Below are positions 1 to 16,807 of a DNA stretch of 64,000 bases, one piece after another. Made by a program: the position numbers and the translations under genes. The notes beneath the pieces are model-generated. The model was not told the DNA's origin. It saw only the letters and a program-made list of their open reading frames with translations, and did no database searches. Position 1 is the first letter of the stretch; every line of letters starts with the position of its first letter. This DNA is from an uncultured Planctomycetia bacterium. GTDB taxonomy: Bacteria; Omnitrophota; Gorgyraeia; Taenaricolales; CAZCCH01. The stretch is taken from positions 1,885 through 65,884 of the forward strand of contig CAZCCH010000005.1 of NCBI GenBank assembly GCA_964497315.1. The letters run 5' to 3'.

Positions 1-1
1 T

Positions 2-2485
2 TCTTTTGACTGGCGATATGATGAAATCCTACATAAAGGTAGGACAGCCACAAGTGGCACATTTGCAGGTGCTTTTGAAGCAAGGACACTTCAAGAGGAA
101 GGAAGAATTATTCGCATTGAAATTCCAGCAGACATTTTATTAGAAAATGGCGTGCTCATGTTGGACCTTGATGCCGTACATTATTTTAATAAGATCAAAG
201 GTAAGCATATTTCGGCTTCAGAAGAAATCGTGCAGTTTAATGAAACGATAGAAGAAGCATCCTCTAAAAACAGGCAAGAGCTGAAGCGCCTTCTTGCTGA
301 AGCATCTCCTGAGGCCATTCAGGATTTTATAGTGCACAAAGAAGAAATCATTATACCGCATAACCACTTGAATGCATTTTTAAGCGGCTGTACAGAAATT
401 CCAGTCCACCGCGATTACAATTATTTGCATTTTTTGGTAGACGGTGACGTACCCTTCAGGATAAACCCCTTACATTTCCCATTATTATGGGATGATGTTG
501 CACGGGCCGTTCGTGATAGACAGAAAGCAGTATCTGCAAAACCCGTAGCAGGCTTTTATATTTGGGAAAATGATAGATTTTCTATTTGGTTCTCATGCAG
601 TGAGCAGACAGGTGAAGCATACCTAGATATAAAAGACAAAGCTAACACCATCATATCAATCAAAAGGCCAGCTTCTGATGAGACATGGAACATGACGCGG
701 CTATCGTTATATCCTTACGATAACCTTGCAAATTACACGCAGGCCATAAGAGAGCTTCAATTTTCACTGCAAGCCCACAATAGCTCACTGACACGTCCTA
801 TAGAATTTATTGTCAATTTATGGGAAAATAGTGGTGTGCTGGAGCGTCCCCAGAAACGTAGTCGGGTTACTGAGGCAGAGGCAGAGGAACAGATAAGGAG
901 GGTTTTTGAGCAGATAAGAGAAAAGTGGGATGCTATTGGAGAAAAGGAGCTTCCTGACGTGCAGAGGTACGATATTATTCTTAGGCCTCGTGCTTTGGAG
1001 AGGTTCACTCGTGATTTGCAGAGAGGCCATGAAGATATTGATGAAATCACAGAGGCTATCGATGAGACGATACGTTTTGAAACAGAAAGCATTGTGTGTC
1101 AGGTAGAGGCCACAGATTCGCAAAGAGAGACTGTTCGGGAGGCAGAGGCGAAATTGAGAGAATATCTTAATGACTTAGGATTGCCCTATCAGCCGCATAA
1201 GGTTATCTTTGTGCCTTTTGATCGCCTGATTTGGGAGTGCATGGGAATATGTTTCGACTATCACCATGCGGTTGTCTTGCCGGCGGAGTTTGAAGATGAG
1301 ATAGTGTGGTATTCGCTTTTTCATGAGCTCCTGCATGGGCAGTCGCCCGGTTGCGAATTAAGGAGACTTGATGAGGGGATGACCGAATATCTCACAGTTA
1401 CTTTAATGATGAGGTTGCAGAAATGTACCGATTTTTCCCCTGAGGCCATCACCAAGTTCTACAAGGAGACCAACTTGCGCTTATACAACAGAGAGGAAGT
1501 TCAGGATGTGTTTAGAGCGGGTCCGAGCTATGGACAAGACTTAGAGGCAATAGCTCGGTTGGTGGCGGTAACAGGAGAGGGCCCTTTGCTCAGGGCATAC
1601 TTTGGAGGTGACTACAGCGAACTTAAGGAGAAGTTGGGAGTGGATGTCTGGAGAGATATAATGGATTTAGCGCAGCGATATGAATCAGACATAGGAAAAG
1701 AGCGAGACGGAGAATATCTGGAGAGGGTTAGGGGAGTTCTATCTGCTCGCTTCCCCGAACCCCCACCCACCCAAACCCAGGCGAGGTTTGGGGAGTTTGA
1801 GCAAGCATGGGATGCAAGTCAAGAGTTAGTAGCACGAGTTGCACCACAGGCTGTGAATGCACCGGGTTGTATTGTATTTAACATATCTCGGTTTTTTGAA
1901 GGAGACGATGAAACTATAATAGCTATTTTAAGAGAACTCCAGGCCGAACTCGCAAAGGCTAACAAATGGTTTGAATTTGAAACGGATAGATATTTTATGG
2001 CAGGGAGAGCAGAGAGACTGGCAAGGTATAATGCTATACTGAAGCCATATAGGGATAATCCTACTTATGATGCGGCAGCAGGAAATAGAGTGGGGGTTGT
2101 AGGTGATTTAGAGATTAGTCGGCTTCTTGAGAATCCGAATTCAGTAACATTAGACTCTGCAATAGGCATTGAAGGGTTTGATCAGGCTGAATTGACAGCA
2201 GAAGATATAGAAGAATTGAGGCCCATTCTTATTTTGACTGCTACATTGATTGACCTGCGTCATGATCCTGAGAACGAGGCTTTGCTGGAATTTTATAAAA
2301 TCCAGCTAGAAAAACTGGGTGCCAGAGTGCCCAATTTAGAAACTATCAAAGATTTAGCCAAGGATATCGAAACTGCCCTTAGGGCAGCCCGAACTCTAAT
2401 CTTACCTGCTATAGAAGCTCTCAATGTATGGGAATACTACCAAGATATAATGAAGTCTATTGAGATTATCATGAGAGATGTATAG
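2..2485 (+). CDS. Hypothetical protein, 5'-partial. The reading frame is open from the window edge and at least 777 aa is present. It contains an HELLH...(18)...E motif resembling a gluzincin metallopeptidase.
   Basis: The frame of ORF 152..2485 stays open upstream to position 2 with no stop. An HExxH motif (LFHELLHGQ) is followed by DEGMTEY. I recognise no other family. Confidence 0.5.
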   Translation, partial: SFDWRYDEILHKGRTATSGTFAGAFEARTLQEEGRIIRIEIPADILLENGVLMLDLDAVHYFNKIKGKHISASEEIVQFNETIEEASSKNRQELKRLLAEASPEAIQDFIVHKEEIIIPHNHLNAFLSGCTEIPVHRDYNYLHFLVDGDVPFRINPLHFPLLWDDVARAVRDRQKAVSAKPVAGFYIWENDRFSIWFSCSEQTGEAYLDIKDKANTIISIKRPASDETWNMTRLSLYPYDNLANYTQAIRELQFSLQAHNSSLTRPIEFIVNLWENSGVLERPQKRSRVTEAEAEEQIRRVFEQIREKWDAIGEKELPDVQRYDIILRPRALERFTRDLQRGHEDIDEITEAIDETIRFETESIVCQVEATDSQRETVREAEAKLREYLNDLGLPYQPHKVIFVPFDRLIWECMGICFDYHHAVVLPAEFEDEIVWYSLFHELLHGQSPGCELRRLDEGMTEYLTVTLMMRLQKCTDFSPEAITKFYKETNLRLYNREEVQDVFRAGPSYGQDLEAIARLVAVTGEGPLLRAYFGGDYSELKEKLGVDVWRDIMDLAQRYESDIGKERDGEYLERVRGVLSARFPEPPPTQTQARFGEFEQAWDASQELVARVAPQAVNAPGCIVFNISRFFEGDDETIIAILRELQAELAKANKWFEFETDRYFMAGRAERLARYNAILKPYRDNPTYDAAAGNRVGVVGDLEISRLLENPNSVTLDSAIGIEGFDQAELTAEDIEELRPILILTATLIDLRHDPENEALLEFYKIQLEKLGARVPNLETIKDLAKDIETALRAARTLILPAIEALNVWEYYQDIMKSIEIIMRDV

Positions 2486-2798
2486 CGACTGACCTATCTA
2501 TCCATAACCCCACCCAGTCCATACTGATATATATAAAATCATCAAATTTACTGATTTTGAATCTGCAGCCAGCTGGAATACTCGATGTCTCTTTTTGCAA
2601 TGGCCAAAATTTTGGCGGGGGAAAATTTTGGCTTGTGTAGAAGGTATTCTTGAATCAGTGCTAAGAATTTTTATCCTTGCAACAGCAAAGAGTATTTGGT
2701 AGAATTAAATTCACCGCTACTTAAGGTTTTACTTCAAGGGGACTCTTGAAGTAGGTTCGGATTTCGTCTAACAGGCACAGCCAGTTTAAAAATTTAGT

Positions 2799-2884
2799 GC
2801 GCGGGTGGCGGAATTTGGCAGACGCGCAAGATTAAGGATCTTGTGGGGTAACCCTTGCAGGTTCAACTCCTGTCCCGCGCACCA
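2799..2884 (+). tRNA. tRNA-Leu (type II, long variable arm). The anticodon reads AAG in my hand fold.
   Basis: Acceptor stem GCGCGGG pairs with CCCGCGC (7 bp). Discriminator A73 and CCA are encoded. The T arm is GCAGG-TTCAACT-CCTGT. The variable arm is a GGG-GTAA-CCC hairpin. The anticodon stem is CAAGA/TCTTG with loop TTAAGGA. Confidence 0.8.
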
Positions 2885-2900
2885 TATAAATGAGTAAGTT

Positions 2901-3575
2901 ATGAAGACCAAAGAAAGACAAATAGCCGTTACCTTAAGAGAGCAAGGATTAACGTACAGGGAAATTCAGAAAGAACTCCCAGTTTCTAGAAGTAGTCTGA
3001 GTTATTGGTTGAGAGATATAGAGTTGACACCTGAACAAATTGAGAGAATACAATATAAAAATGAATTGATAAAGAAAAAATTTATCGAATATAATGAGTT
3101 TAAAAAGAAAGAGGCAAGAAGACGGCGGGATAGCATTATAGAAATAGCAAAGAAAGAAATAAACAAGATATCAAGACGAGAACTAAAATTATTGGGCATA
3201 GCTTTATATTGGGCTGAAGGGAAAAAGGCAAACATGAAGGCAGGCTCCGCAACCTTTACAAATTCAGATCCTTTTATGATTAAATTAATAATGCGGTGGT
3301 TTAGGGAAATATGTTATGTCCCAAATCCAAAATTTAGAGCGAGTTTTCAGATTTATAATACGCAAAAGATAGATGAAATAAGAACATATTGGTCAAAGTT
3401 AACTAATATTCCATTCTCTCAGTTTATGGCACCTACTTTGAGGGTTAGTAAAACAAGCAAAGGTAAAAGAGGTAAGATCTTACCCTATGGAACACTCCGA
3501 ATACAAATTAATGATTCTGCACTTCTAACGAGAATATTAGGGTGGATTGAAGGATTAAAAGGCCCCGTCGTCTAG
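2901..3575 (+). CDS. Hypothetical protein with an N-terminal HTH and a single LAGLIDADG-like motif (LLGIALYWAEGKK). Putative homing-endonuclease-like protein.
   Basis: ORF of 224 aa. The HTH-like N-terminus reads LREQGLTYREIQKELPVSRSSLSYWL. The motif LLGIALYWAEG resembles a LAGLIDADG helix with an acidic residue plus Gly. The stop codon TAG lies inside tRNA-Glu at 3573-3575. Confidence 0.4.
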   Translation: MKTKERQIAVTLREQGLTYREIQKELPVSRSSLSYWLRDIELTPEQIERIQYKNELIKKKFIEYNEFKKKEARRRRDSIIEIAKKEINKISRRELKLLGIALYWAEGKKANMKAGSATFTNSDPFMIKLIMRWFREICYVPNPKFRASFQIYNTQKIDEIRTYWSKLTNIPFSQFMAPTLRVSKTSKGKRGKILPYGTLRIQINDSALLTRILGWIEGLKGPVV

Positions 3576-3638
3576 CCTGGTTCAGGACGCGGGATTCTCA
3601 TTCCCGTGGCACGGGTTCAAATCCCGTCGGGGCTACCA
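3561..3638 (+). tRNA. tRNA-Glu(CUC)
   Basis: The D region TCGTCTAG...GGAC is typical of tRNA-Glu. The anticodon stem is CGGGA/TCCCG with loop TTCTCAT, giving anticodon CUC. The T arm is ACGGG-TTCAAAT-CCCGT. The acceptor stem GGCCCCG pairs with CGGGGCT and is followed by ACCA. Confidence 0.8.
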
Positions 3639-3680
3639 GCACTACGGTAACTGCAATATTTTCAGTTAGTTATGGAAAAG
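3622..3680 (+). repeat. Direct repeat copy 1 (attL-like). It covers the last 17 nt of tRNA-Glu plus about 40 nt downstream, including the terminator stem.
   Basis: TCCCGTCGGGGCTACCA-gcACTACGGTAACTGCAATATTTTCAgtTAGTTATGGAAAAGAGG recurs at 4981-5042 with a few mismatches. Confidence 0.7.
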
Positions 3681-3712
3681 AGGGCAAACTCATATCCCCT
3701 CTTTTTTGTTTT
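3676..3712 (+). terminator. Rho-independent terminator downstream of tRNA-Glu
   Basis: GAAAAGAGGG-(11 nt loop)-CCCCTCTTTTTTGTTTTTG is a GC stem followed by a T-run. Confidence 0.6.
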
Positions 3713-3739
3713 TGAAAATAGAGTGAAATAAGAATAATC

Positions 3740-3803
3740 TTGACATGATTTCTAGATATGTTATAATTACGCATAGTGCGTAACGCATAATGCGTAATGG
3801 AGG
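3740..3803 (+). promoter_or_regulatory. Sigma70-type promoter followed by an operator-like palindrome and an SD
   Basis: TTGACA (3740-3745), 16-nt spacer, TATAAT (3762-3767). Inverted repeats follow: TTACGCA-TAG-TGCGTAA and ACGCAT-A-ATGCGT (3768-3797). GGAGG lies 7 nt before the ATG at 3810. Confidence 0.6.
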
Positions 3804-3809
3804 CGTTTT

Positions 3810-4934
3810 ATGGAAAATCCGTTTATATACGGCAAAGAGGTTTCCGGAGAGAATTTTTGTAACAGAAAGAAAGAAATCGAAGAACTGAGACGTGATATTA
3901 TCAACAGTCAAAATGTCATTGTGTTTTCTCAAAGAAGATTTGGCAAAACATCCCTGCTTAAAAGAGTGTTCGAGGGCTCAAAAAGAAAAGGGATAATCAC
4001 TATCCATGCAGATTTATATTCAGTACTAACAGAAGAAGATTTTGTTTCACTTTATGCCAAGGCCATAACAAAATCTATTTTTGGCAACTTCAAAGGGAAA
4101 CTTAGAAACGTCGCAAAGTTTTTCAAAAAGATTAGGCCTACATTTAAGGTAAGCGAAGCAGGAGATATAGTTTATAGTGTAGATATTGAGAAAAAGGAAA
4201 TTTTACCTTCACTAGAAGATACTTTAGAAAGCGTAAATCGGTATATAAATAGCAAGAAGAAAAAAGCCGCCGTCTGTTTTGATGAATTTCAGCAAGTTGG
4301 CCTGCTTAAAACTGACAGGCTTCAGAAGGTTATGCGCACTTCAATACAGAAACACAAAAACATATCTTATATATTTATGGGCAGTAAAAAACACTTAATA
4401 TCGGATATGTTTAATAACCCCCACAAACCCTTTTATAAAAGCGCTAAGCCATTTCCTCTTGGTAAGATTGAGACTTCAGAACTCTTAGAATTTATACAGG
4501 ATAAATTTACACTTACCGATAAATATCTCCCAGATACTTTAGCAAAGCAGATAGTAGGGACGTGTGAAAGGCACCCCTATTATGTACAGTATCTCTGTCA
4601 TATTATGTGGGAGAGGGCAATAGATAAAAAAAGGATAACAGAAGAAGACTTTTTAAAAAGCCTTGAGCTTTTATTGGAAAGGGAATCTTCCACCTATGAA
4701 GCAACATGGAATTTATTGACGCTTAAACAAAAACAAGTCCTTTTGGCATTAAGTAAGATGTTGCTCCAGGAAAAACTGTTCTCCTCAGACTTTTTGCAGA
4801 AAAACAATCTTGGCTCAGCGTCAAGCCTCCAGCGTACAGTAAAGAGTCTAATTGATAAAGATCTTATTGATAAAGAAGGAGATGTTTATACCATAATAGA
4901 TATTTTCTTCAAAAAGTGGCTTTTCAAGTTATAA
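3810..4934 (+). CDS. ATP-binding protein, archaeal-ATPase (ATPase_2) family with a C-terminal DUF234-like region
   Basis: Walker A FGKTSLLKR and Walker B AAVCFDEFQ. The overall layout is typical of PF01637-type ATPases. Confidence 0.7.
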   Translation: MENPFIYGKEVSGENFCNRKKEIEELRRDIINSQNVIVFSQRRFGKTSLLKRVFEGSKRKGIITIHADLYSVLTEEDFVSLYAKAITKSIFGNFKGKLRNVAKFFKKIRPTFKVSEAGDIVYSVDIEKKEILPSLEDTLESVNRYINSKKKKAAVCFDEFQQVGLLKTDRLQKVMRTSIQKHKNISYIFMGSKKHLISDMFNNPHKPFYKSAKPFPLGKIETSELLEFIQDKFTLTDKYLPDTLAKQIVGTCERHPYYVQYLCHIMWERAIDKKRITEEDFLKSLELLLERESSTYEATWNLLTLKQKQVLLALSKMLLQEKLFSSDFLQKNNLGSASSLQRTVKSLIDKDLIDKEGDVYTIIDIFFKKWLFKL

Positions 4935-4980
4935 AAAGATGAAAAAGCACTTCGGATATAAATTATCCGTAGTGAACGGC

Positions 4981-5042
4981 TCCCGTCGGGGCTACCATCA
5001 CTACGGTAACTGCAATATTTTCAATGAGTTATGGAAAAGAGG
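4981..5042 (+). repeat. Direct repeat copy 2 (attR-like) of the tRNA-Glu 3' end plus downstream sequence
   Basis: The 17 nt identical to tRNA-Glu positions 3622-3638 are followed by a near-identical about 40 nt. The hairpin stem carries compensatory changes: GAGGAC/GTCCTC here versus GAGGG/CCCTC in copy 1. Confidence 0.7.
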
Positions 5043-5072
5043 ACGCGTGGGTTTGTCCTCTTTTATTATTTA
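5034..5072 (+). terminator. Rho-independent terminator for the 3810..4934 gene
   Basis: AAAAGAGGAC-(loop)-GTCCTCTTTTATTATTT. Confidence 0.55.
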
Positions 5073-5101
5073 AAACATAACACAGGTCTTTGATTTTTTA
5101 C

Positions 5102-5160
5102 TTGACAAAACACGCATTTTGGTGTATATTTGCAATACAATTGCAAAATTGCACATAAGG
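5102..5160 (+). promoter_or_regulatory. Sigma70-type promoter plus a downstream palindromic operator
   Basis: TTGACA (5102-5107), 17-nt spacer, TATATT (5125-5130). The palindrome TTGCAAT-ACA-ATTGCAA follows, and AAGGAGG lies 5 nt before GTG 5169. Confidence 0.6.
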
Positions 5161-5168
5161 AGGAATTG

Positions 5169-6359
5169 GTGACTAAACGATATATAACAAGGGATATAGA
5201 AGCCATTATAAGAAAGGCGGAGAGACAATTTCCAGCCATAATAGTAACAGGCCCTCGCCAGTCAGGCAAGACAACGCTTTTAAAGCACCTTTTTTTAAAA
5301 ACGCATAACTACGTTTCGTTGGACGATCCTGATAACAGGCTCATGGCGAATAGAGAGCCAAGGTTTTTCATGGAAAATTTTCCAGCGCCTGTGATTATAG
5401 ATGAGATACAATACGCTCCGGAACTTTTTTCTTATATAAAAATGGTAGTAGATAAAGACCGCTCTAAAAAAGGACAGTTTCTTTTAACCGGTTCCCAAAG
5501 CTTTCCGCTGATGGCCAAAGTTACAGAATCACTTGCGGGAAGAATTGCCATTTTTAATCTCTTGCCATTTTCTTTTAAAGAAAGGTTGAAGATGCAAAAG
5601 TCTTTTAGTTTAGACGTGTTTAAAAAAATGCTGCTTAGGGGCGGATTCCCGGAGCTTGTTGTTAATAAATCCATGGACGCAAAATTATGGTTTAACGGAT
5701 ATTTGCAAACATACCTCGAAAGAGATGTGCGACAACTTCGCAATATCGGAAATTTAACTGATTTTCAGAGATTTCTTGAAATGCTGGCTTCCTATAATGG
5801 ACAGGTGCTTAATTTATCCGATCTATCGCGCAATCTCGGAGTAGCGGTAAATACAATCAAAGGGTGGATTTCCATTCTTGAGGCATGTAATCAAATAGCG
5901 CTTATTAAGCCATACTACAAAAATAAAGGAAAACGCCTTATAAAACGCCCAAAAATATATTTTCTTGATACTGGTTTTTTATGTTATTTAAACGGCATGA
6001 CAGACCAAAATCAGGTTTTAAAAGGGCCGGCTGCGGGACAGTTATTCGAAGGTGCGGTTTTAACCGAGATCATACATGGTTTTTACGACAAAGGAGATAT
6101 ACCGAGAGTTTTCTGGTGGAGGACATCGCACGGAGAAGAAGTGGATTTTATCGTAGAAAAGAAAGGCAGGCTTGTGCCAATAGAAGTCAAAATTACCTCA
6201 AGGTCAAATAAAGTGTTGACGCAGGGCCTGGTAGCCTTTGAGAGACTTTTTTCAACAGAGGTTAAAAAGTCAATCGTAGTCAATTTATCGGATAAAAAGC
6301 TGTTAGTAAGCAATAAGATAGAATGCCAACCTTTTAGGGATTTCATAGAAAGCTTTTGA
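5169..6359 (+). CDS. AAA+ ATPase of the AAA_14/DUF4143 family
   Basis: GPRQSGKTTLLKHLF is the Walker A motif. The C-terminal region KRPKIYFLDTGFLCYL is DUF4143-like. The start is refined to the in-frame GTG behind the strong SD; the ORF track starts at 5130. Confidence 0.7.
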   Translation: MTKRYITRDIEAIIRKAERQFPAIIVTGPRQSGKTTLLKHLFLKTHNYVSLDDPDNRLMANREPRFFMENFPAPVIIDEIQYAPELFSYIKMVVDKDRSKKGQFLLTGSQSFPLMAKVTESLAGRIAIFNLLPFSFKERLKMQKSFSLDVFKKMLLRGGFPELVVNKSMDAKLWFNGYLQTYLERDVRQLRNIGNLTDFQRFLEMLASYNGQVLNLSDLSRNLGVAVNTIKGWISILEACNQIALIKPYYKNKGKRLIKRPKIYFLDTGFLCYLNGMTDQNQVLKGPAAGQLFEGAVLTEIIHGFYDKGDIPRVFWWRTSHGEEVDFIVEKKGRLVPIEVKITSRSNKVLTQGLVAFERLFSTEVKKSIVVNLSDKKLLVSNKIECQPFRDFIESF

Positions 6360-6462
6360 CTCGGCTAAACAATTCATTACAGTGACATATACAAAAAACT
6401 CCTCATGTGATATAATTACAGGAACAGATGGTTGTAAGGACTACCAAATAGGATAAGTTATT

Positions 6463-6957
6463 ATGAGAGTTAAAGATTGCATGACAAAAGATGTGGTTTG
6501 CGTAAAACGCTCTACCACCCTATCTGAAATTCTAGCTACTTTTAGAAGGGTAAGCTTTCACACTTTGCCTGTCATTGAAGAAAAAGACAAGCTCATTGGC
6601 GTGGTAACCTTTGAAGACCTCTTAAAAGTATTTCGACCATATGCAGTAGAGGTTACTGATATGCTTAAAACCATTCCTTTTATTGGTGAAGTTACTGAAG
6701 ATGAGGATATACTGGTAGCTGATATCTCACAAGACTTAGGGTTGTTAGTAGTTGCAGACGATATAATGAGCACAGACTTTGTAACCATAGAGCCACAAGT
6801 TGATGTTAGTCAAGCAAGACAGCTTATGAAGCTACACAGCCAGAATAGACTTCTCGTAACAGAGTATGGACGCCTTCAAGGAATTATAAGCCTCTTTGAT
6901 ATAGTGCTGGCTATCTTTAAAGAAAAAGGAATCATAGCAAATAACGGGACTCATTAA
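6463..6957 (+). CDS. CBS-domain pair protein
   Basis: Two CBS-like repeats: MTKDVVCV...LPVIEEKDKLIGVVT and IMSTDFVTI...RLLVTEYGRLQGIIS. Confidence 0.7.
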   Translation: MRVKDCMTKDVVCVKRSTTLSEILATFRRVSFHTLPVIEEKDKLIGVVTFEDLLKVFRPYAVEVTDMLKTIPFIGEVTEDEDILVADISQDLGLLVVADDIMSTDFVTIEPQVDVSQARQLMKLHSQNRLLVTEYGRLQGIISLFDIVLAIFKEKGIIANNGTH

Positions 6958-8124
6958 ATGGAAATTTTAAGCCTTGGTTTTATATTACTTGCAGGTCTTG
7001 CCTCAGGAAAGATTATCCGTCGGTTAAAATTTCCTGTTGTGACTGCATATCTTTTGCTTGGCATTTTAGCAGGGCCTTTTGTGTGGAATTTAATATCACC
7101 TAGCATACTGCGCGCTTCAGGGCTTATATCCTTTATTGTTTTAGGTTTTGTGGCATTTAGCTTAGGCCAGAATTTTTCTTTTGAATCTTTTAGAAAAATT
7201 GGTAAGTCCATTATTTGGATATCTATATTAGGCGCCTGTGGTCCGTGGCTTATTGTTACTTTAGGGCTTTCATTAATTTTCAAGATGCCTTTCTATGAAG
7301 CGCTTTTGTATGGTGCTATTGCCTCTGCAACAGCACCTGCAGCAACTGTATTAGTAACTAGGGAATTCAAGGCAAAGGGCACATTCACAGAAACACTCCT
7401 TGCTACGGTTGCAATAGACGATGCCTGGTGTCTTATTATATTTGCTTTATCTTTTGCTATAGCCAGGGCGATGGCAAGTTACGGTTTTGTTAATTCCGTA
7501 TTAATTAAAGCAATTGCCAGTGCTTGTGTAGAGATAGCTGGTTCGTTTGTTTTGGGCTGGCTTATAGCGTGGGTATCAGGCTATCTTATTCGCTTTGCCA
7601 GGACACAGGCAGAGTTGCTTGTATTTATCTTAGGGATTATTTTACTCAATACAGGCCTTGCAATATATTTTGGGTTATCCGTACTTTTAGCAAACATGTT
7701 TTTAGGGGCAGTACTTGTAAATATCCATCACTTAAGCTTTAAATTCTTCGATACCTTACGAAACATAGACCCACCTTTATATATTATATTTTTTGTCCTT
7801 GCCGGGGCTAATCTAGAAGTTAATCTTTTGCCTGCATTAGGAGCACTAGGTATAGCTTATTTTGTTTTACGTTCTTTCGGAAAGATTTTCGGAGCAGGCC
7901 TTGGAGGATTTATTGCAGGTGCGCCTGCCCGCATAAGAAACAATATAGGTTTAGCCCTTCTTCCGCAGGCAGGTGTTGCCTTGGGTGTAGCCTTAGTAGC
8001 CAAATCAGAATTTCCTCAAATAGGTGGCGTAATATTTTCCACCATTGTGGCCACTACAGTCCTGTATGAAATCATTGGCCCAATCTGCACAAAATTCGCC
8101 CTTTCTAAGGCCGGAGAAATTTAG
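6958..8124 (+). CDS. Polytopic membrane transporter, probably in the cation:proton antiporter (Na+/H+ exchanger) family
   Basis: A 388-aa protein with about 11-12 hydrophobic segments. Its ATG starts directly at the TAA of the CBS gene (TAAATG). Confidence 0.5.
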   Translation: MEILSLGFILLAGLASGKIIRRLKFPVVTAYLLLGILAGPFVWNLISPSILRASGLISFIVLGFVAFSLGQNFSFESFRKIGKSIIWISILGACGPWLIVTLGLSLIFKMPFYEALLYGAIASATAPAATVLVTREFKAKGTFTETLLATVAIDDAWCLIIFALSFAIARAMASYGFVNSVLIKAIASACVEIAGSFVLGWLIAWVSGYLIRFARTQAELLVFILGIILLNTGLAIYFGLSVLLANMFLGAVLVNIHHLSFKFFDTLRNIDPPLYIIFFVLAGANLEVNLLPALGALGIAYFVLRSFGKIFGAGLGGFIAGAPARIRNNIGLALLPQAGVALGVALVAKSEFPQIGGVIFSTIVATTVLYEIIGPICTKFALSKAGEI

Positions 8125-9156
8125 GTGCAATCCCAAAAGATTTTAATTATAAGAACAGATCGCATAGGCGATGTGGTGCTTTCAACGCCTATTATTAAAG
8201 CAGCCAGGAAAAAATTTCCCAATGCATATTTGGCTATGATGGTAAGGCCTTATGCAAAAGATATCATTTTAGGAAATCCCTACCTAGATAAGATAATCCT
8301 CTATGATAAATACAAAACCCACAAATCAATTTTTGCTACTTTAAAATTTGCATTGAACTTAAAACGTGAACACTTCACTACAGCATTAATACTTCATCCT
8401 ACAAACAGGGTAAATTGGATAACATTTTTAGCTAGGATACCCGAAAGAATAGGATGGAATAAAAAATGCGGATTTTTACTAACTAAAAAACTACCCTACA
8501 TAAAACATAAAGGCGAAAAGCACGAATCGGAATACACCATGGATTTAGCAAAGGTAATTGGCATAGATGGTGATAGAAAAGATTTATTTATGCCTATAAG
8601 AGAAGATGCTAGAAAATCAGTGACCGACTTTTTAACATCTTGCGATGTTTCCAATGAGGACATATTAATAGGCATACATCCTGGAGCGAGCTGCCCATCA
8701 AAACGCTGGCCCATAGAACGCTTTGGACAAATTGCTGATAGGATTATGAAAGAATTTAAATGCAAGGTAATCATCCTTTATGGGCCAGGAGAAAATAACC
8801 TAGCAGAAGCAATTAAAGGAGCCATGAAAACTTCCCCCATAATAGCTAAAAATAACTTTAGCGTAGCAGAACTTGCAGTAGCTTTAAAAAGGTGCACTTT
8901 ATTAGTTACAAATGATAATGGACCTATGCATATAGCTACTAGTGTAGGTACACCTGTTGTAGCTATATTTGGGAGGCTTCAGGCAGGTCTTAGTCCCACA
9001 AGATGGGGGTCCTTGGGCGAAAAAGACGTATATCTGCATAAAGATGTAGGTTGTAAGGAGTGCCTTGCTCACAATTGCAGGCTTAATTTTAGATGCCTTG
9101 AGGCTATTTCTGTGGATGAGGTACATGAAAAGGCCTCTAATTTGCTTAAAAACTAG
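8125..9156 (+). CDS. Glycosyltransferase family 9 (ADP-heptose:LPS heptosyltransferase-like)
   Basis: The N-terminal ILIIRTDRIGDVVLSTPIIKAARKKFPNA and the central GPGENN...TNDNGPMHIA motif are typical of WaaC/WaaF-type GT9 enzymes. Confidence 0.75.
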   Translation: MQSQKILIIRTDRIGDVVLSTPIIKAARKKFPNAYLAMMVRPYAKDIILGNPYLDKIILYDKYKTHKSIFATLKFALNLKREHFTTALILHPTNRVNWITFLARIPERIGWNKKCGFLLTKKLPYIKHKGEKHESEYTMDLAKVIGIDGDRKDLFMPIREDARKSVTDFLTSCDVSNEDILIGIHPGASCPSKRWPIERFGQIADRIMKEFKCKVIILYGPGENNLAEAIKGAMKTSPIIAKNNFSVAELAVALKRCTLLVTNDNGPMHIATSVGTPVVAIFGRLQAGLSPTRWGSLGEKDVYLHKDVGCKECLAHNCRLNFRCLEAISVDEVHEKASNLLKN

Positions 9157-9168
9157 GTTTTTTGGCTC

Positions 9169-9197
9169 TTGACAGCTTAGTTAGCTCATGGTAAAAT
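9169..9197 (+). promoter_or_regulatory. Sigma70-type promoter
   Basis: TTGACA, 17-nt spacer, TAAAAT. Confidence 0.5.
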
Positions 9198-9219
9198 AAG
9201 CCCTTAATATGGTGGTAAT

Positions 9220-10164
9220 ATGAGTAAAATAGACCTAGATAAAATAAAGACATATTCTATATATAAAAGGCAAAGCAAGATAAATATGAAAAATTTTGCC
9301 AAACCAACGCCCCGTAAGGCTAGTTTTGTCCTCTTTTTAGAGAGCCTACCAGATGTATTAGCTGTGCGTGACTTTAAGACATTAGTTAAGGCAATTGCAA
9401 AAGCGCGCGCAGGCAAAAGACCAAAACCTGTTATATTTATGCTAGGTGCCCATGTTATCAAATGCGGGCTTAGTCCTTTAATTATAGATTTGATGAAAAA
9501 GGGCATCATAAGTGGCATTGCACTTAATGGTGCTGGTGTTATCCACGATGTAGAGCTGGCATTAACAGGCCGCACATCAGAGGATGTAGCAAAGGCAATA
9601 AAGAATGGTTCTTTTGGTATGGCCAAAGAAACCGCGCAGTTTGTAAATAGCGCTATAAATAAAGCATCCGAAAAAAATATTGGCCTAGGTGAGTCTGTAG
9701 CAGGGGCCATTGCAAATAAGAAAACAGGTTATAAAAAATATTCAATACTTTATACAGCAAAAAGATTAAAAATTCCTGTAACCGTACATGTAGCTATTGG
9801 GACAGATATCATACACCAACATCCTTCTTGTGACGGTGCGGCATTAGGGGAGAGCTCTTTAAAAGACTTCCACACACTCATTGAGCAAGTTTCAAAATTA
9901 CAGGGTGGCGTATTAGTCAATGTGGGTTCTAGTGTAATTTTACCTGAGGTGTTTTTAAAGGCCTTAACTGTTGCTCGAAACCTAAAATTTAAAGTGAAAA
10001 ACTTCACTACAGCTAATTTGGATATGATACCTCATTACAGGCCCTATCAAAACGTAGTCGTAAGGCCTAATCTGGGCGGCGGTAGAGGGTATATGATTAC
10101 AGGGCATCATGAGATAATGATACCTCTCTTACACAGGGCATTAGTAGAAAAATGCAAAATTTAA
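9220..10164 (+). CDS. Conserved hypothetical protein, possibly with a deoxyhypusine-synthase-like fold. Function unknown.
   Basis: A 314-aa ORF inside the heptose/Kdo cluster. The motif LNGAGVIHDVELALTG is only weakly reminiscent of DHS-family NAD-binding loops. Confidence 0.4.
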   Translation: MSKIDLDKIKTYSIYKRQSKINMKNFAKPTPRKASFVLFLESLPDVLAVRDFKTLVKAIAKARAGKRPKPVIFMLGAHVIKCGLSPLIIDLMKKGIISGIALNGAGVIHDVELALTGRTSEDVAKAIKNGSFGMAKETAQFVNSAINKASEKNIGLGESVAGAIANKKTGYKKYSILYTAKRLKIPVTVHVAIGTDIIHQHPSCDGAALGESSLKDFHTLIEQVSKLQGGVLVNVGSSVILPEVFLKALTVARNLKFKVKNFTTANLDMIPHYRPYQNVVVRPNLGGGRGYMITGHHEIMIPLLHRALVEKCKI

Positions 10165-11141
10165 ATAAACTAAAAAAAATAATATCTAAATTTTCAGATA
10201 CAAAGATTCTGGTTGTAGGGGATCTTATACTGGATGAATTTATCTGGGGTAAGGTAGATAGGATCTCCCCCGAAGCCCCTGTACCTGTTGTGCGGGCGGA
10301 TAAGGAAACCTATCTTCCTGGTGGAGCAAGCAATGTGGCTAGTAATATAGCAGCCTTGGGTGCAGAGGTTTCAGTGGCAGGTGTCATAGGTAATGACAGA
10401 AGAGGGGAGGAGCTTGCAAGCTTAATGCTTGATGGAGGAATTAACACAGAAGGTCTTATAGTAGATGAAGATAGGCCCACCACACAAAAATCGCGCATAG
10501 TAGCCCATCACCAGCAGGTAGTCAGGATAGATAGAGAGAAAAGCGAAGACCTATCAAAAGACACTTTAGATCAACTAATAGAGTATGTCAAAGGCAAAAT
10601 ACCAGAAGTAGATGCAGTCGTAATAGAGGATTATGGAAAAGGTGTTATTACAGCATCCCTTCTAAAAGCAATAGTTAAATTTGCAAAGCAAAACAAAAAA
10701 ATAATTACAGTTGACCCAAAAGAGAACCACTTTAGTTACTACAAAGGCGTTACAGCCATAACGCCAAATCATAAAGAAGCCCAAGATGCTGTAGGTATAA
10801 AGATAACAGACCGAGGAAGCCTTAAAAAAACAGGCCTTAAGTTATTAAAAGACCTTAACTGTAGGGCAGTTTTAATAACCCTTGGTGAAGAGGGTATGTG
10901 CTTGTTTGAGAAAAGTGGTAAAATTACACATATCCCTACAGCAGCACAGGAGGTCTTTGATGTCTCTGGTGCAGGGGATACAGTTATAGCGTGTTTCACA
11001 CTTGCCCTAGCAAGTAGAGCAAGCATGGTTGATGCTGCTAGGATTTCAAATGTAGCAGCAGGGATAGTTGTTGAGAAAGTAGGCGTGGCAGCCACAACAG
11101 GCGAAGAATTAAAAAAGAGGTTACGCACATGGAAGCAATAG
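10152..11141 (+). CDS. hldE: D-glycero-beta-D-manno-heptose-7-phosphate kinase (pfkB family; HldE domain I / RfaE1-like, stand-alone)
   Basis: ILVVGDLILDEFIWGKVDRISPEAPVPVV and the C-terminal DVSGAGDT are pfkB motifs. It lies among LPS core genes. Confidence 0.8.
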   Translation: MQNLNKLKKIISKFSDTKILVVGDLILDEFIWGKVDRISPEAPVPVVRADKETYLPGGASNVASNIAALGAEVSVAGVIGNDRRGEELASLMLDGGINTEGLIVDEDRPTTQKSRIVAHHQQVVRIDREKSEDLSKDTLDQLIEYVKGKIPEVDAVVIEDYGKGVITASLLKAIVKFAKQNKKIITVDPKENHFSYYKGVTAITPNHKEAQDAVGIKITDRGSLKKTGLKLLKDLNCRAVLITLGEEGMCLFEKSGKITHIPTAAQEVFDVSGAGDTVIACFTLALASRASMVDAARISNVAAGIVVEKVGVAATTGEELKKRLRTWKQ

Positions 11142-11917
11142 GAATAATTCCAGCAAGATATGGCTCGACGAGGCTCGATGGGAAGGTATTAGCCCCAATC
11201 GCCGGTAAGCCTATGATACAGCATGTATGGGAACAGGCGAAGAAGGTAAAAATTTTAGACGATCTTATTATAGCTGCAGATGATGAAAGAATAATTGATG
11301 TAGTTAAAAAATTCGGTGGAAAGGCAATCTTTACTGCCAAGGAGCATCGTTCAGGCACAGATAGATTAACAGAGATTGCCAATCCTTTGGAAGTTAAGGT
11401 AGTTGTAAATATACAAGCAGATGAGCCGATGATAGACCCAAGCATGGTAGATGGCGTTGTCAGAACACTCCTTGATGATGAAGAGCTTGTTATGGCTACT
11501 GTTGCAAAAAAAATTACAGCTGAATCTGAACTTACAGACCCTAACGTGGTTAAGGTAATTGTAGATAAAAATGGTTTCGCGATTTATTTCTCAAGAGCAC
11601 CGATACCTTATGTAAGAGAATCAGAACCCACCTCCAGTGGACACTCGCTTATGTTTGGGGTAGGAAGCCTTTTTCATTCACCTAAGTATAAAATTTCCGA
11701 TGCAACATATAAACATATAGGCATGTATGCATATACAAAAGACTTTCTTTTTACCTTCACTAACATGCCTACATCATCTTTGGAAAAAATAGAAAAATTA
11801 GAGCAGTTGCGTGTTTTAGAAAACGGTTACAAGATAAAGATTTTAGAAACCACTCATGACAGCATTGGCGTAGATACACCAGAAGATTTAGAGAGGGTAA
11901 AAAAGATTTTAGAATAA
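11129..11917 (+). CDS. kdsB: 3-deoxy-manno-octulosonate cytidylyltransferase (CMP-Kdo synthetase)
   Basis: IGIIPARYGSTRLDGKVLAPIAGKPMIQHV is the canonical KdsB N-terminus. Confidence 0.85.
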   Translation: MEAIGIIPARYGSTRLDGKVLAPIAGKPMIQHVWEQAKKVKILDDLIIAADDERIIDVVKKFGGKAIFTAKEHRSGTDRLTEIANPLEVKVVVNIQADEPMIDPSMVDGVVRTLLDDEELVMATVAKKITAESELTDPNVVKVIVDKNGFAIYFSRAPIPYVRESEPTSSGHSLMFGVGSLFHSPKYKISDATYKHIGMYAYTKDFLFTFTNMPTSSLEKIEKLEQLRVLENGYKIKILETTHDSIGVDTPEDLERVKKILE

Positions 11918-11926
11918 AGGCTTGAA

Positions 11927-12757
11927 ATGAAACCAAGAGTTATAAAGGTAAGCAATATAAAAATAGGCAGACCAAATCCTTTAATTTTAATAGCAGGTCC
12001 GTGCGTAATAGAATCTGAGAAACACGCTTTAATACATGCTGAAAAAATAAAGGCCATTGCTAATAGAGCAGGTGTTGAGTTTATTTATAAATCCAGTTAT
12101 GATAAGGCAAACAGAAGTTCTATGAACTCATTTAGGGGGCCTGGTTTGAAAAAAGGCCTTAAGATTTTAGAAAAGGTAAAAAAGAAAATAGGTGTTCCAG
12201 TTTTAAGCGATGTACACTGCCGTACAGAATTAAATGAAGCAAAGAAAATTTTAGATGTTATTCAAATCCCCGCATTTTTGTCTCGGCAGACTGATTTTAT
12301 CATTGAAGCAGCAAAGACTGAGAAAGTGCTAAATGTAAAAAAGGGTCAGTTTTTAGCACCCAATGATATGATTAATGTGGTTGAGAAGATATCCCGTTCC
12401 GGAAATAAAAATATACTAATTACAGAAAGAGGCACAAGTTTTGGCTATAATAATCTTGTTAGTGATATGCGCTCCCTTGCGATTATGAGGCAGTTTGGAT
12501 ATCCCATTCTTTACGATGCCACACACAGTGTTCAGCTACCAGGCGGGCAAGGACATTGTTCAGGTGGGCAGCGGGAGTTTATCAAAGGGCTTGCGAGGGC
12601 TGCTGTTGCAATGGGTTGTGATGGGCTTTTTGTGGAAGTCCATCAAACCCCAGACAAAGCACCCTGTGATGGGCCCAACATGTTAGGATTGGATGAATTA
12701 GAGGACTTATTAGGTGAAGTTGTAGAGATAGACACAATTATAAAGGAGGCAGAGTGA
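11927..12757 (+). CDS. kdsA: 2-dehydro-3-deoxyphosphooctonate aldolase (Kdo-8-P synthase)
   Basis: LILIAGPCVIES, KSSYDKANRSS and AFLSRQTD match KdsA. Confidence 0.85.
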   Translation: MKPRVIKVSNIKIGRPNPLILIAGPCVIESEKHALIHAEKIKAIANRAGVEFIYKSSYDKANRSSMNSFRGPGLKKGLKILEKVKKKIGVPVLSDVHCRTELNEAKKILDVIQIPAFLSRQTDFIIEAAKTEKVLNVKKGQFLAPNDMINVVEKISRSGNKNILITERGTSFGYNNLVSDMRSLAIMRQFGYPILYDATHSVQLPGGQGHCSGGQREFIKGLARAAVAMGCDGLFVEVHQTPDKAPCDGPNMLGLDELEDLLGEVVEIDTIIKEAE

Positions 12758-13842
12758 TGCATTGTTCAATGGAGAAGGTATTAACCAAAAGACCACAATA
12801 TGTTATCGACAAATTAGGTGCTGACAGTAAGGCTTGCCTTATAAATTCAGCTGATGTCTTCAGCAGCTTGAAGGAAAGCAAGGTAATAGTAATGACTTGC
12901 AATACCAGGATAAAGCTTGCAATACCTGGTATTATGCAAGCTGCAGAAGAATTAGATGCTGTAGTAGGTTTTGAATTGGCGAAATCCGAAGGCAACGTTG
13001 ATGGAGGCTACACAGGCCAAGACCCAAAGACCTATTTTGAAACAGTAACTAGCTATGCAAAAGAAATTAATTTTACGAAACCTTTCTTTATTCATGGCGA
13101 CCACATTACAGTGAAAAACACCTCAAAGGAAGCCGTTGATGAAGCAAGAGCACTAATTGCAGCTGAACTTGATGCAGGGTATACTTCCTTTGCAATAGAT
13201 GCCTCTTTCAATGAACTACCTGATAACATAAAGATAACAGCAGAGTTGGTAAAGCCTATCATTGAAAAAGGAATTGGCCTTGAAGTAGAAGTAGGAGAGG
13301 TTAAGGCAGCAGGGAAAGAGGCAGTCTTAACTACGGTGGAAGAGGCAGTTGAGTTTATTTCAGGGCTTAACAAGCTAGGTGTACACCCAAATCTTCTTGC
13401 TATAAATAATGGTTCTAAGCATGGCAACTATTTAGCAGGAGAGAAGGTTTCAATTGATTTGGAGACAACAGGAAAAATATATGAAGCCATAAAAGGCTTC
13501 GGCGTATGTCTTGCCCAGCATGGCATAACAGGTACTCCTCTTAGCATAGTAGGTACATTCGCAGAATATGGCATCAGAAAAGGAAATGTCGGTACTATAT
13601 GGCAAAATGTAGCGCACCAGGGACTACCGGAAGATTTAATGCAGGAAATGCGTAAATGGGCAGAAGAGAATAAAAAAGATATCAAATTTGCCACCAAACC
13701 ATTTAAATCCAGAATAGACAATGTTCCAGATGAGAACAAGAAACAAATAACTGAGCTTGCTTATAAAGAAGCGAAGGATTTCATTGAGGCCTTCAGGGCC
13801 CAAGGTACGGCAAGTACTATTTGCGAAGCATTATCTAAGTAG
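12757..13842 (+). CDS. Class II ketose-bisphosphate aldolase (fructose/tagatose-bisphosphate aldolase family)
   Basis: FIHGDHITVK, NNGSKHGNY and a Zn-ligand His pattern. An SD AAGGAGG lies 8 nt upstream of the ATG, which overlaps the kdsA stop. Confidence 0.6.
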   Translation: MHCSMEKVLTKRPQYVIDKLGADSKACLINSADVFSSLKESKVIVMTCNTRIKLAIPGIMQAAEELDAVVGFELAKSEGNVDGGYTGQDPKTYFETVTSYAKEINFTKPFFIHGDHITVKNTSKEAVDEARALIAAELDAGYTSFAIDASFNELPDNIKITAELVKPIIEKGIGLEVEVGEVKAAGKEAVLTTVEEAVEFISGLNKLGVHPNLLAINNGSKHGNYLAGEKVSIDLETTGKIYEAIKGFGVCLAQHGITGTPLSIVGTFAEYGIRKGNVGTIWQNVAHQGLPEDLMQEMRKWAEENKKDIKFATKPFKSRIDNVPDENKKQITELAYKEAKDFIEAFRAQGTASTICEALSK

Positions 13843-13851
13843 ACATAAAGA

Positions 13852-13899
13852 TAGGGACTGACTTTAAAAGCTTTTAAAAAACAGTCCCTATTTTATTTC
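13852..13899. terminator. Bidirectional terminator hairpin between the convergent fba-like and lptG genes
   Basis: TAGGGACTG-(loop containing the palindrome TTAAAAGCTTTTAA)-CAGTCCCTA, followed by TTTTATTT. Confidence 0.5.
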
Positions 13900-14978
13900 A
13901 ATAACAATATTCCAGCGCAGAAAAATACAACATTGGCAAGCCATGCACTGCCTAAAGGATCAAGCCAGCCGCCTTTACCAAAGGCCAAAGATACAGCCAT
14001 AACAGTGTAGTAGATAAAACTTATTACTACACTCATACCTATTCCAAAAAGCACCCCACTCTTTCTAGCCCGCAGGCTTATGGCAGCACCAATAAATACT
14101 ATAATAAATGTTATAAAAGGAAAAGCCGTTTTATAGTGTAAATCTACACTAAGCCGCATGGCGGTTTTAGGTTCTACCTTTGCAAGGCGCTCTATATATT
14201 CTTTTAGCGTTTCATAGCTCATATGTTCTGAGCGGAATTGCCCCCTTAGGAATTCTTTTGGAGTTTCTGTGATACCTAGTGTTGTTTTACTATAAGTTAA
14301 GGGTTTAGTTTCAAGATTATTCCCGAGCCCAAAGTCATATATAACACAGTCATAAAACACCCATTTATTTTTAGTCCAAACAGCCTTTTTGGCTGTGATT
14401 TTTTTTCTTAATCTATGCAATATATCTTGCTCTAAGATTATTAAATCATATAGTACCTTTTTAACAGGATCAAAGCTTTTTGCATAAAACATACGATTTT
14501 GCGCACCATAAAGTGCTACATCTTTTATCAAAGAAGATTTTTTCGCAGATGGGCTCTCAACCCTTTCAATTTTATCTTGTTTTATAATAGTAGCAGTCAT
14601 AGTAGCCTCAGGTAAAATTCTTTCATTCACCAGCGCTATAACAACACTTGCTAAAAGCCCCATCAGCAAAAATGGCCTGATTATCCTAAATACACCTATA
14701 CCGCTTGCCTTCATAGCAGTAATTTCATTGTACTTATTTAAGATACCTATTGTATAGACTGTTGCTAAAAGCACCGCTACCGGTGCAACTTGGACAAATA
14801 TAGAAGGAAGAAGGCACAGGTAATAGTCAAAAAGCATCATCATGCCTACTTTGTTACGGAGTATTTCATCTAAATGGCCAAATATATCAATGATTACATA
14901 AAGCATAACAAATACTGTCAGGCAGTACAATAATGGCGGGATAAAAGACCTAAGCAAGTATTTATCTAAAATTCTCAT
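13893..14978 (-). CDS. lptG: LPS export ABC permease LptG (YjgP/YjgQ family)
   Basis: A 361-aa protein with 6 TM segments and a periplasmic beta-jellyroll region. It is paired with its paralog LptF. Confidence 0.75.
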   Translation of the reverse strand: MRILDKYLLRSFIPPLLYCLTVFVMLYVIIDIFGHLDEILRNKVGMMMLFDYYLCLLPSIFVQVAPVAVLLATVYTIGILNKYNEITAMKASGIGVFRIIRPFLLMGLLASVVIALVNERILPEATMTATIIKQDKIERVESPSAKKSSLIKDVALYGAQNRMFYAKSFDPVKKVLYDLIILEQDILHRLRKKITAKKAVWTKNKWVFYDCVIYDFGLGNNLETKPLTYSKTTLGITETPKEFLRGQFRSEHMSYETLKEYIERLAKVEPKTAMRLSVDLHYKTAFPFITFIIVFIGAAISLRARKSGVLFGIGMSVVISFIYYTVMAVSLAFGKGGWLDPLGSAWLANVVFFCAGILLLK

Positions 14979-14980
14979 CT

Positions 14981-16773: not shown

Positions 16774-16807
16774 GGGTATTTGTTAAGAGAAAATATAGTA
16801 CTTATTA

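Follow-up and report, generated by a model that had tools for sequence, protein, structure and literature searches.

Candidate tandem single-gene ATPase cassettes at the 3′ end of a tRNA-Glu(CTC) gene in an uncultured Omnitrophota bacterium

Results and discussion

We analyzed a tRNA-Glu(CTC) gene and the two ATPase genes that follow it in a 64,000-nt stretch of DNA (hereafter the window; GenBank assembly GCA_964497315.1, contig CAZCCH010000005.1, positions 1,885 to 65,884 of the forward strand) from an uncultured bacterium. The Na/H exchanger encoded downstream of the ATPase genes places the organism in Omnitrophota, where the nearest species representatives are only ~65% identical. A copy of the tRNA 3′ end lies between the two ATPase genes, and the locus is laid out as two candidate cassettes with the following features:

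3561–3638, plus strand: intact tRNA-Glu(CTC) (ARAGORN; Rfam RF00005, 60.1 bits), the presumed attB-like anchor of the array
3622–3638, plus strand: core copy 1 (O1), TCCCGTCGGGGCTACCA, comprising the last T-loop base, 3′ T-stem, 3′ acceptor strand, discriminator base and CCA
3639–3683, plus strand: leading arm of cassette 1, repeated at 4998–5042
3672–3709, plus strand: terminator-like hairpin 1 (fold: 13-pair stem, 12-nt loop, then T-run)
3740–3767, plus strand: promoter of ATPase 1 (TTGACA, 16 nt, TATAAT, extended TG; 12/12 consensus positions)
3766–3798, plus strand: putative palindromic operator ATTACGCATAGTGCGTAACGCATAATGCGTAAT (inverted repeat)
3810–4934, plus strand: cargo gene 1, ATPase 1, 374 aa, an AAA+ ATPase in the ATPase_2 (archaeal ATPase) family, its C-terminal region winged-helix-like
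4948–4974, plus strand: hairpin in the 3′ untranslated region (3′ UTR), CACTTCGGATA-TAAAT-TATCCGTAGTG (fold), terminating in the conserved cassette end TATCCGTAGTG
4981–4997, plus strand: core copy 2 (O2), a 17-nt exact copy of the tRNA 3′ end (repeat search)
4998–5042, plus strand: leading arm of cassette 2, differing from 3639–3683 at 3/45 positions
5035–5064, plus strand: terminator-like hairpin 2 (fold and terminator scan: 11 pairs, 8-nt loop, then T-run)
5102–5153, plus strand: promoter of ATPase 2 with operator-like palindromes (TTGCAATACAATTGCAAAATTGCA; TTGACA, 17 nt, TATATT)
5169–6359, plus strand: cargo gene 2, ATPase 2, 396 aa, an AAA_14-DUF4143 ATPase (Pfam DUF4143, E 3.3e-44; AAA_14, E 9.2e-32)
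6437–6446, plus strand: possible decayed third core AGGACTACCA (8/10, weak), just before a CBS-domain gene

The original prediction, made from the letters of the sequence, described the last 17 nt of tRNA-Glu, together with a downstream stretch and a hairpin, as recurring at 4981–5072; repeat search, alignment and folding bear this out. A repeat finder returned a single long direct repeat, 3622–3683 versus 4981–5042 (62 nt, 59/62 identical, 95%), and the pairwise alignment of both copies continues through the hairpin and T-run, to ~3712 and ~5072. The arms differ by G/T at 3639/4998 and by GTT/ATG at 3665–3667/5024–5026. Arm 1 starts with CACTACGG (3640–3647), which is the reverse complement of CCGTAGTG at 4967–4974. 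The outer stem and the T-run are common to both hairpins, and the loops are unrelated (that of terminator 1 is CAAACTCATATC). The stems (GAGGG/CCCTC versus GAGGAC/GTCCTC) are separated by one compensatory G-C to A-T change and one extra pair, in agreement with the compensatory substitutions that had been pointed out. Both hairpins are GC-rich, stand after a gene and run into a T-run, and are predicted to be intrinsic terminators.

The window has exactly two copies of the 17-mer TCCCGTCGGGGCTACCA and two of the 25-mer after it, where shuffled sequences lead to an expectation of 0.03 and 0.00, respectively. A search for further copies of the repeat had been recommended; with two copies in 64 kb, a genome-wide repeat family was rejected for the window. 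As predicted, the duplicated part of the tRNA is restricted to its 3′ 17 nt, which start at the last T-loop base and run through the CCA. In local alignment, the 5′ 61 nt of the tRNA show no similarity to the 46 nt ahead of copy 2 (p ~0.86 versus shuffles), which gives the copy a sharp left boundary. A longer decayed tRNA copy, with the 3′ UTR hairpin as an anticodon-arm remnant, was likewise rejected (p 0.86), because there is no significant similarity and because TATCCGTAGTG is kept with the cassette of a related locus (L098, see below) and does not co-vary with the tRNA of that locus. Direct repeats at Klebsiella tRNA islands, which include part of the tRNA gene, span 15–221 bp (10.1101/2020.11.02.365908), so the length of the window repeat falls within the known range.

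ATPase 1 is the sole open reading frame (ORF) between the repeat copies. Its Pfam matches are ATPase_2 (E 7.7e-10), AAA_14 and a weak MarR_2, and its family profile matches the archaeal ATPase structure PDB 2fna over residues 13–360. We found 517 homologues, many of them named as Omnitrophota. The bracketed segment is therefore a single ATPase_2-family gene, as had been proposed from the sequence, and its own consensus promoter and palindromic operator are likewise confirmed by the promoter match and the inverted repeat listed above.

ATPase 2 matches the PADLOC defence candidate PDC-S01 over its full length (PDLC04790, E 5.2e-106, residues 1–393) and is, on this profile match, a member of a candidate defence family with a predicted anti-phage role; ATPase 1 has only weak matches (E ~1e-5). 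The two ATPases share the Walker A motif as their sole common feature, which excludes a tandem gene duplication as the origin of the pair. Downstream of ATPase 2, the third core at 6437 is a weak candidate that could be due to chance: each strand of the window has about one match as loose as AGGACTACCA every 3.5 kb (for a 100-nt spacer, roughly p 0.03). The window encodes another AAA_14-DUF4143 ATPase at 30340–31497, with 33% identity to ATPase 2 and a TTGACA promoter of its own, beside a 4381-aa multidomain ORF (16808–29953, minus strand). Neither tRNA fragments nor flanking repeats were seen around this ATPase gene.

We compared the locus with relatives via loci around ATPase homologues (L098–L122; 6–13 kb pieces of ATPase-bearing relatives) and with 80 loci, mostly from Omnitrophota, around homologues of the downstream Na/H exchanger. 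Locus L098 comes from the metagenome-assembled genome (MAG) GCA_964586605.1, which is also the source of the best exchanger match. The closest homologues of ATPase 1, in L098 (73% identical) and L100 (72%), directly follow a tRNA-Glu(CTC). The linkage of tRNA-Leu (in the window tRNA-Leu(AAG), 2799–2884; ARAGORN, Rfam), tRNA-Glu and the ATPase is common to three species, and the other neighbours in L098 and L100 all differ from those in the window and from each other. The leading arm of cassette 1 is homologous to the post-tRNA sequence in L098, and the 3′ UTR of ATPase 1 is homologous to that in L098 (p ~0.0005). Homology of the cassettes between species is limited to the promoter, the ORF and, for the window versus L098, the short 3′ UTR, and it is on this basis that we define the cassette as a unit.

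A fragment of the resident tRNA also follows the ATPase in L098. The sequence there reads ...CTATCCGTAGTGTTCAGCACGAG TTGGGGCTGCCAT, that is, TATCCGTAGTG-N11-TTGGGGCTGCCAT. The fragment is a 13-nt exact copy of the end of L098's own tRNA, and no terminator is included in the duplication. The tRNA of L098 differs from that of the window at two core positions, with G at 73 and T at 66 versus A at 73 and C at 66, and the fragment co-varies with the resident tRNA, being GCTACCA in the window and GCTGCCA in L098. The 13-nt core is perfectly kept, and the 5 nt before it differ from the tRNA. At 7177–7192 of L098, the called ATG of a downstream rhomboid-family gene overlaps the end of the fragment (GGGGCTGCCATGACG), so that the fragment abuts or supplies the start codon. 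In L100, the fragment after the ATPase is a decayed match only.

Fragments of this kind also bound ATPase genes away from a tRNA. The ATPase in L102 (72% identical to that of the window and 89% to that of L098) lies between two cores, CCGTAGTG-N10-GGGCTACCA before and TTCCCGTTGGGCTACCAT after the gene, with no tRNA in the 4.3 kb upstream; the TATCCGTAGTG motif also precedes a core in this locus. Despite this 89% identity, the contexts of the L098 and L102 ATPases are unrelated and their core variants differ. In L100, the decayed fragment is followed by a sequence (7160–7270; TTTTGTGCGAAGC...GGACCT) that in L102 (4120–4230) comes after the upstream fragment, ahead of the ATPase. The order of modules around the cores differs between L100 and L102, though a SurA-aldolase-HisG right flank is common to both.

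For ATPase 2, the closest homologue on a usable contig (L118, 72% identical) is flanked by the cores GCGGGCTACCAT upstream and CTCCCGTTGGGGCTACCAT downstream. A strong predicted terminator hairpin follows each L118 core within 1–4 nt, the hairpin sequences being unrelated; predicted terminator-like hairpins also follow the cores in L102. No intact tRNA is present in the L118 locus. In the downstream copies of L102 and L118, the left boundary again falls at tRNA position 60, with different flanks. The L118 cassette region is flanked by c-di-GMP-I-GGC riboswitch matches at 829–910 (minus strand) and 3980–4060 (plus strand; 55.6 and 62.5 bits), one of which precedes a 2843-aa ORF. At 2228–2356, just upstream of the first tRNA fragment, there is a palindromic, GC-rich stretch that was called as a 42-aa ORF.

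The exact 9-mer GGGCTACCA of the core has a single occurrence in 1.01 Mb (both strands) of the 80 exchanger control loci, and every exact match in L098–L122 is either a tRNA 3′ end (L100, L101) or the flank of an ATPase cassette, on the strand of the gene.

The regulatory sequences of both cassettes are conserved as well. The ATPase 1 promoter is kept in L098, L100, L102, L107 and L114. The operator DNA (pattern TACGCATARTGCGTAACGCATAATGCGTAA) is nearly invariant in four species (window, L098, L100 and L102), in which the promoter DNA is also close to unchanged and the ATPases are 72–89% identical, and operator variants with few changes are found in L107 and L114. Upstream of the ATPase 2 homologues in L118 and L120, the promoter and operator of that gene (operator pattern GTGTATATTTGCAGTAGGATTGCAAAATTGCA) are likewise kept. 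An ATPase 1-type cassette with an identical protein (P0018) occurs in two different left-hand contexts in L107 (5775–5850) and L109 (565–640), the samples of which also contain the window organism. The block shared by L107 and L109 begins at a promoter resembling the ATPase 2-type promoter, and in L109 a CGCCTACCAAACTTT motif is found ~110 nt further upstream.

From these sequence comparisons, the locus is probably a tandem pair of cassettes, each with one ATPase gene, that entered the 3′ end of tRNA-Glu(CTC) through site-specific recombination. We favour this reading because the same tRNA-derived core bounds the units, with the left boundary at the same tRNA position; because single-gene units of two unrelated ATPase families are bounded in this way in several species; and because a conserved cassette end precedes the core and a terminator follows it. 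The original prediction had left three options, namely a decayed integrative element, a cassette inserted by site-specific recombination and a local duplication of the terminator module; the comparative data favour the second.

Copy 2, which lies between ATPase 1 and ATPase 2, is best read as the junction of two tandem cassettes and not as a plain attR, because the cassette end TATCCGTAGTG is followed there by the tRNA core and then by the same leading arm as after the tRNA. The 45 nt and the terminator would in that case be an arm of the cassette, not part of the att core. From this structure (end of cassette 1, core, arm), ATPase 1 would be the more recent arrival of the two.

The layout itself, in which an intact tRNA marks one end and its directly repeated 3′ part the other, is also the classical one expected if the locus were the remnant of a single larger integrative element (a prophage or an island) that had lost its integrase and most genes, leaving ATPase 1 as the sole survivor between attL and attR. 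Integrase-less decayed elements are common at tRNA genes (PMC3146451; 10.1101/2020.12.28.424599). However, the same minimal content stands between the fragments in the window, L098 and L102, with an analogous single-gene unit in L118, and independent decay to the same single gene is unlikely. The leading arm after copy 2 would moreover be expected between two cassettes, not at the junction of an element with the chromosome. We consider such a remnant very unlikely.

Several observations weigh against site-specific insertion of cassettes. A recombinase was not found near any of the cassettes. The Pfam sweep of the 32 other ORFs in the 64-kb window returned housekeeping families and the DUF4143 ATPase at 30340–31497, with no recombinase family among the 25 of 76 matched Pfam families listed. 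The absence of an integrase between the repeats, which had been noted at the outset, agrees with this sweep and with the ATPase_2/AAA_14 gene as sole occupant. The gene tables of L098, L100, L102 and L118 contain no recombinase, and no integrase or recombinase was found in the cassette or within ~5–6 kb of it in any of the five loci compared. No conserved neighbour protein that could be a candidate recombinase is common to the loci. In addition, L120, which carries a 71% identical ATPase 2 homologue, has no tRNA fragments, and L107 (ATPase 66% identical) has a terminator module upstream, no clear fragment and no exact core copy.

The population data weigh on the same side. Exact-protein look-ups retrieved 15 contigs from at least 13 samples, covering parts of 2668–16957 and 99.9–100% identical to the window, and eight of these conspecific contigs span both repeat copies. 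The insertion is fixed in the sampled population, as the spanning contigs all match the window. No empty site, alternative occupant, or excision or circle junction was seen among the retrieved conspecific contigs. A comparison of the tRNA-Glu locus in related genomes had been recommended, and an identical arrangement throughout, with no empty site, named as the outcome that would tell against an insertion. That outcome was found in part: the eight spanning contigs are identical, L098 and L100 are also occupied, and there is no empty site. The neighbours are otherwise different in those two species, and in L098 the fragment is a copy of its own tRNA. The exchanger loci offer no further comparison. 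The CBS-exchanger pair is conserved in the nearest species, without synteny upstream, so there is no comparable site; neither ATPase family stands beside the exchanger at comparable identity in any of the 80 loci (sole match, a 28% identical DUF4143 protein in L080), and there is no tRNA-Glu among the 60 loci scanned for tRNAs.

A 20-mer from the repeat gave one chance match, inside dnaA of an unrelated contig, in a metagenome collection that does not contain the source population. In viral contigs the operator pattern had no match and only two distant ATPase relatives were found, and plasmid and phage collections contained only ATPase homologues of at most 32% identity.

The extent of the repeat also poses a difficulty, as its identity runs 45–90 nt past the tRNA end, far beyond what a crossover core needs. 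It could instead reflect a local, non-site-specific duplication of a ~90-bp terminator segment when the gene arrived, with the tRNA part included merely by adjacency, either through single-crossover (Campbell-type) homologous recombination of a circle with that segment or through slippage in repair or replication. The lack of an integrase among the listed families of the window sweep is compatible with such an event, and L114 provides a parallel: its ATPase (64% identical) is flanked by an unrelated 85-nt direct repeat with a long terminator hairpin and no tRNA sequence. A terminator module on both sides of an ATPase without tRNA sequence keeps non-site-specific duplication alive as a rival. 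In this Omnitrophota MAG (GCA_042569555.1), the repeat lies at 4834–4917 and 6172–6256 (92–96% identical), and similarity resumes at the -35 box of the next promoter. Against a local duplication, however, L102 and L118 have the same left boundary, at tRNA position 60, with unrelated sequence beyond the core, L098 duplicates only 13 nt and no terminator, and the fragments co-vary with each species' own tRNA. The wholly different loops beside flanks that are 95% identical are a poor fit to a simple recent copy; this combination, over 45 nt past the tRNA, fits no simple model and is a difficulty for site-specific insertion too. On this evidence we regard a local duplication as clearly unlikely.

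A further difficulty for site-specific insertion is that the divergence of the ATPases (72–82%) is similar to that of neighbouring housekeeping proteins (65–92%). Together with the three-species linkage, this fits the inheritance of one ancient event and suggests that the insertion may predate the divergence of the species. If there was a single ancient insertion, the co-variation of fragment and tRNA needs an extra cause, be it several rounds of excision and re-integration, gene conversion, or selection acting on the fragment. In the strictest form of this explanation, tRNA-Glu and ATPase 1 would be an old, vertically inherited pair whose fragment and hairpin were selected for a purpose such as 3′-end processing or termination, not for recombination. 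The linkage despite otherwise different neighbours, the fixation of the locus in the population, the levels of divergence, and the perfect 13-nt core in L098 beside 5 nt that differ from the tRNA can all be explained in this way. The explanation is at odds with the same fragments bounding an unrelated ATPase in L118, with the upstream fragment in L102, which cannot serve the 3′ end of that gene, with the 89% identical L098 and L102 ATPases in unrelated contexts, and with the decayed fragment in L100, its absence from L120 and the lack of an exact core copy in L107. A purely vertical pair is in our judgement quite improbable.

Returning to site-specific insertion, each cassette would comprise a terminator-bearing leading arm, a promoter and a palindromic operator of its own, a single AAA+ ATPase gene and a short 3′ UTR. 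The window would then read, in order, tRNA/O1; arm and terminator 1; ATPase 1; TATCCGTAGTG and O2; arm and terminator 2; ATPase 2; possibly a decayed third core; and the CBS/Na-H exchanger operon. A circular cassette would carry a site made up of its 3′ end, the core and the leading arm, and could recombine with the core at the tRNA or, by accretion, with the left junction of a resident cassette. Such recombination would regenerate an intact tRNA with a fresh terminator and push the older cassette downstream, and the recombinase would be encoded outside the cassette and act in trans. The terminator after the core may insulate the cassette from read-through and end the transcription of the preceding tRNA or gene, a role that would account for a conserved stem beside a freely varying loop. 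We infer the mobility of the cassettes, the recombination and its direction, the circular intermediate and the trans-acting enzyme from the arrangement of these sequences. The insertion is probably old, and the cassettes may no longer move.

The proposed array has several likenesses among known systems. In Dehalococcoides, ssrA islands occur in tandem, each bounded by a 20-bp 3′ repeat with an insertion point in the T-loop (McMurdie et al., 2011; PMC3146451), and a conserved non-ssrA motif lies just upstream of each repeat (PMC3146451). Sixteen of these islands have a serine-recombinase module (dsiB), another 15 have no integration module and are read as cis-mobilizable, and island length ranges from several kb to tens of kb (PMC3146451). 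The window array shares with them the stacking behind a tRNA-like gene, the 3′-end repeats, the T-loop site and a pre-repeat motif, here TATCCGTAGTG. It differs in that its units are 1.3–1.4 kb long and carry a single gene, that its target is tRNA-Glu and not transfer-messenger RNA, and that no recombinase was seen in any locus. In Prochlorococcus, partial tRNAs stand between the elements, newer arrivals push older ones inward, and scattered partial tRNAs mark old events (Hackl et al., 10.1101/2020.12.28.424599). These tycheposons carry tyrosine recombinases and replication modules, and their excision was shown experimentally (10.1101/2020.12.28.424599). The window array, unlike tycheposons, has no recombinase that we could find and is known here from sequence alone.

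Cis-mobilizable elements (CIMEs) of the Streptococcus ICESt1/ICESt3 family are flanked by att sites and lack recombination and transfer genes of their own; they are defined beside a cognate integrative and conjugative element (ICE) whose integrase mobilizes them. Tandem arrays arise if a new element enters by recombination at the attL or attR of one already resident. Accretion of this kind would give the order tRNA-core-arm, ATPase 1, end-core-arm, ATPase 2. The window locus has the att-like bounds, the lack of recombination and transfer genes, and the tandem units with an internal att-like copy that describe CIMEs, but no cognate integrase-bearing partner is known for its cassettes.

Integron cassettes, including those in clusters of attC sites lacking integron-integrases (CALINs), resemble the window cassettes in being single genes with a short hairpin-bearing site between them, in having the recombinase outside the cassette and in growing at one anchor. 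Unlike those of integrons, the hairpins of the window are GC stems with T-runs; the cassettes are anchored at a tRNA 3′ end, and IntI was not found. Both window cassettes have their own strong consensus promoters, whereas integron cassettes are mostly promoterless ORFs that a platform promoter expresses, with IntI beside attI. No attC cores (RYYYAAC ... GTTRRRY) were seen at 3639–3712 and 4998–5072 by inspection, no dedicated attC model having been run. Xer-dependent modules, namely integrative mobile elements exploiting Xer recombination (IMEX) and the pdif modules of Acinetobacter plasmids, use 28-bp dif-like sites with a 6-bp spacer. They are likewise small, recombinase-less cargo units bounded by sites for a trans-acting host recombinase, but the 8-bp inverted repeats CCGTAGTG/CACTACGG of the window lie 24 nt apart around a tRNA-derived core, and no Xer/dif-like sites were seen at the window cores by inspection. 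We found in the window locus neither the integrase nor the empty-site polymorphism of a classical integrative element. We class it as an att-bounded, recombinase-less islet at a tRNA gene, of a known kind, and is unusually small and recurrent.

A broader interpretation is that some Omnitrophota have a dedicated, integron-like cassette platform, in which the tRNA-Glu(CTC) 3′ end is a capture site for minimal single-ATPase circles and the recombinase is encoded elsewhere in the genome. Each circle would hold one AAA+ ATPase gene under a self-regulated promoter/operator, along with a terminator arm and a core of 13–18 nt derived from the tRNA. With at least two unrelated ATPase families, including the defence candidate PDC-S01, these would be a new class of recombinase-less cassettes stocking a tRNA-anchored mini defence array. 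We put this forward as a speculative and rather doubtful extension.

Outside the array, ATPase 2 is followed by the CBS-domain gene, the Na/H exchanger and lipopolysaccharide core genes. A 224-aa ORF (2901–3575) occupies the gap between tRNA-Leu and tRNA-Glu, its TAG stop (3573–3575) lying inside tRNA-Glu. It is built from an N-terminal HTH_23, a long helix and an alpha/beta domain, and homologues of it are frequent in Omnitrophota and Patescibacteria, in many cases on 1–2 kb contigs. The AlphaFold model is confident, with a predicted local distance difference test (pLDDT) score of 88.5, and has no Foldseek match in PDB at E < 0.01, and a LAGLIDADG-like identity was not supported. At the left end of the window (1–2667), a 777-aa ORF without a Pfam match lies in DNA of higher GC content (0.42–0.47), and its protein is on record in no other contig. 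Independent JGI and ENA assemblies repeatedly break at 2668/2732 and at 6250–6312, not at the repeats. Strain variation, repeats in other parts of the genome or a chimeric join at the left end of the window may lie behind these observations.

Conclusion

In conclusion, the tRNA-Glu(CTC) locus of this Omnitrophota bacterium carries an exact 17-nt copy of the tRNA 3′ end between two unrelated ATPase genes. Should the copy be only an old scar, the locus would represent ordinary tRNA-site integration, and the finding would be of value for annotation, in that 4981–4997 is not a tRNA pseudogene derived from gene duplication. If the cassette interpretation is true, these would be the first att-bounded gene cassettes anchored at a tRNA to be described in the uncultured phylum Omnitrophota, and unusually small ones, with one self-regulated ATPase gene per unit and no recombinase. 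The 17-nt core, the two conserved operators and the conserved cassette end are handles that would allow a census of such cassettes across genomes and a search for the trans-acting recombinase. The abundant “orphan” ATPases of the ATPase_2 and AAA_14-DUF4143 families would then become testable as mobile defence cargo.

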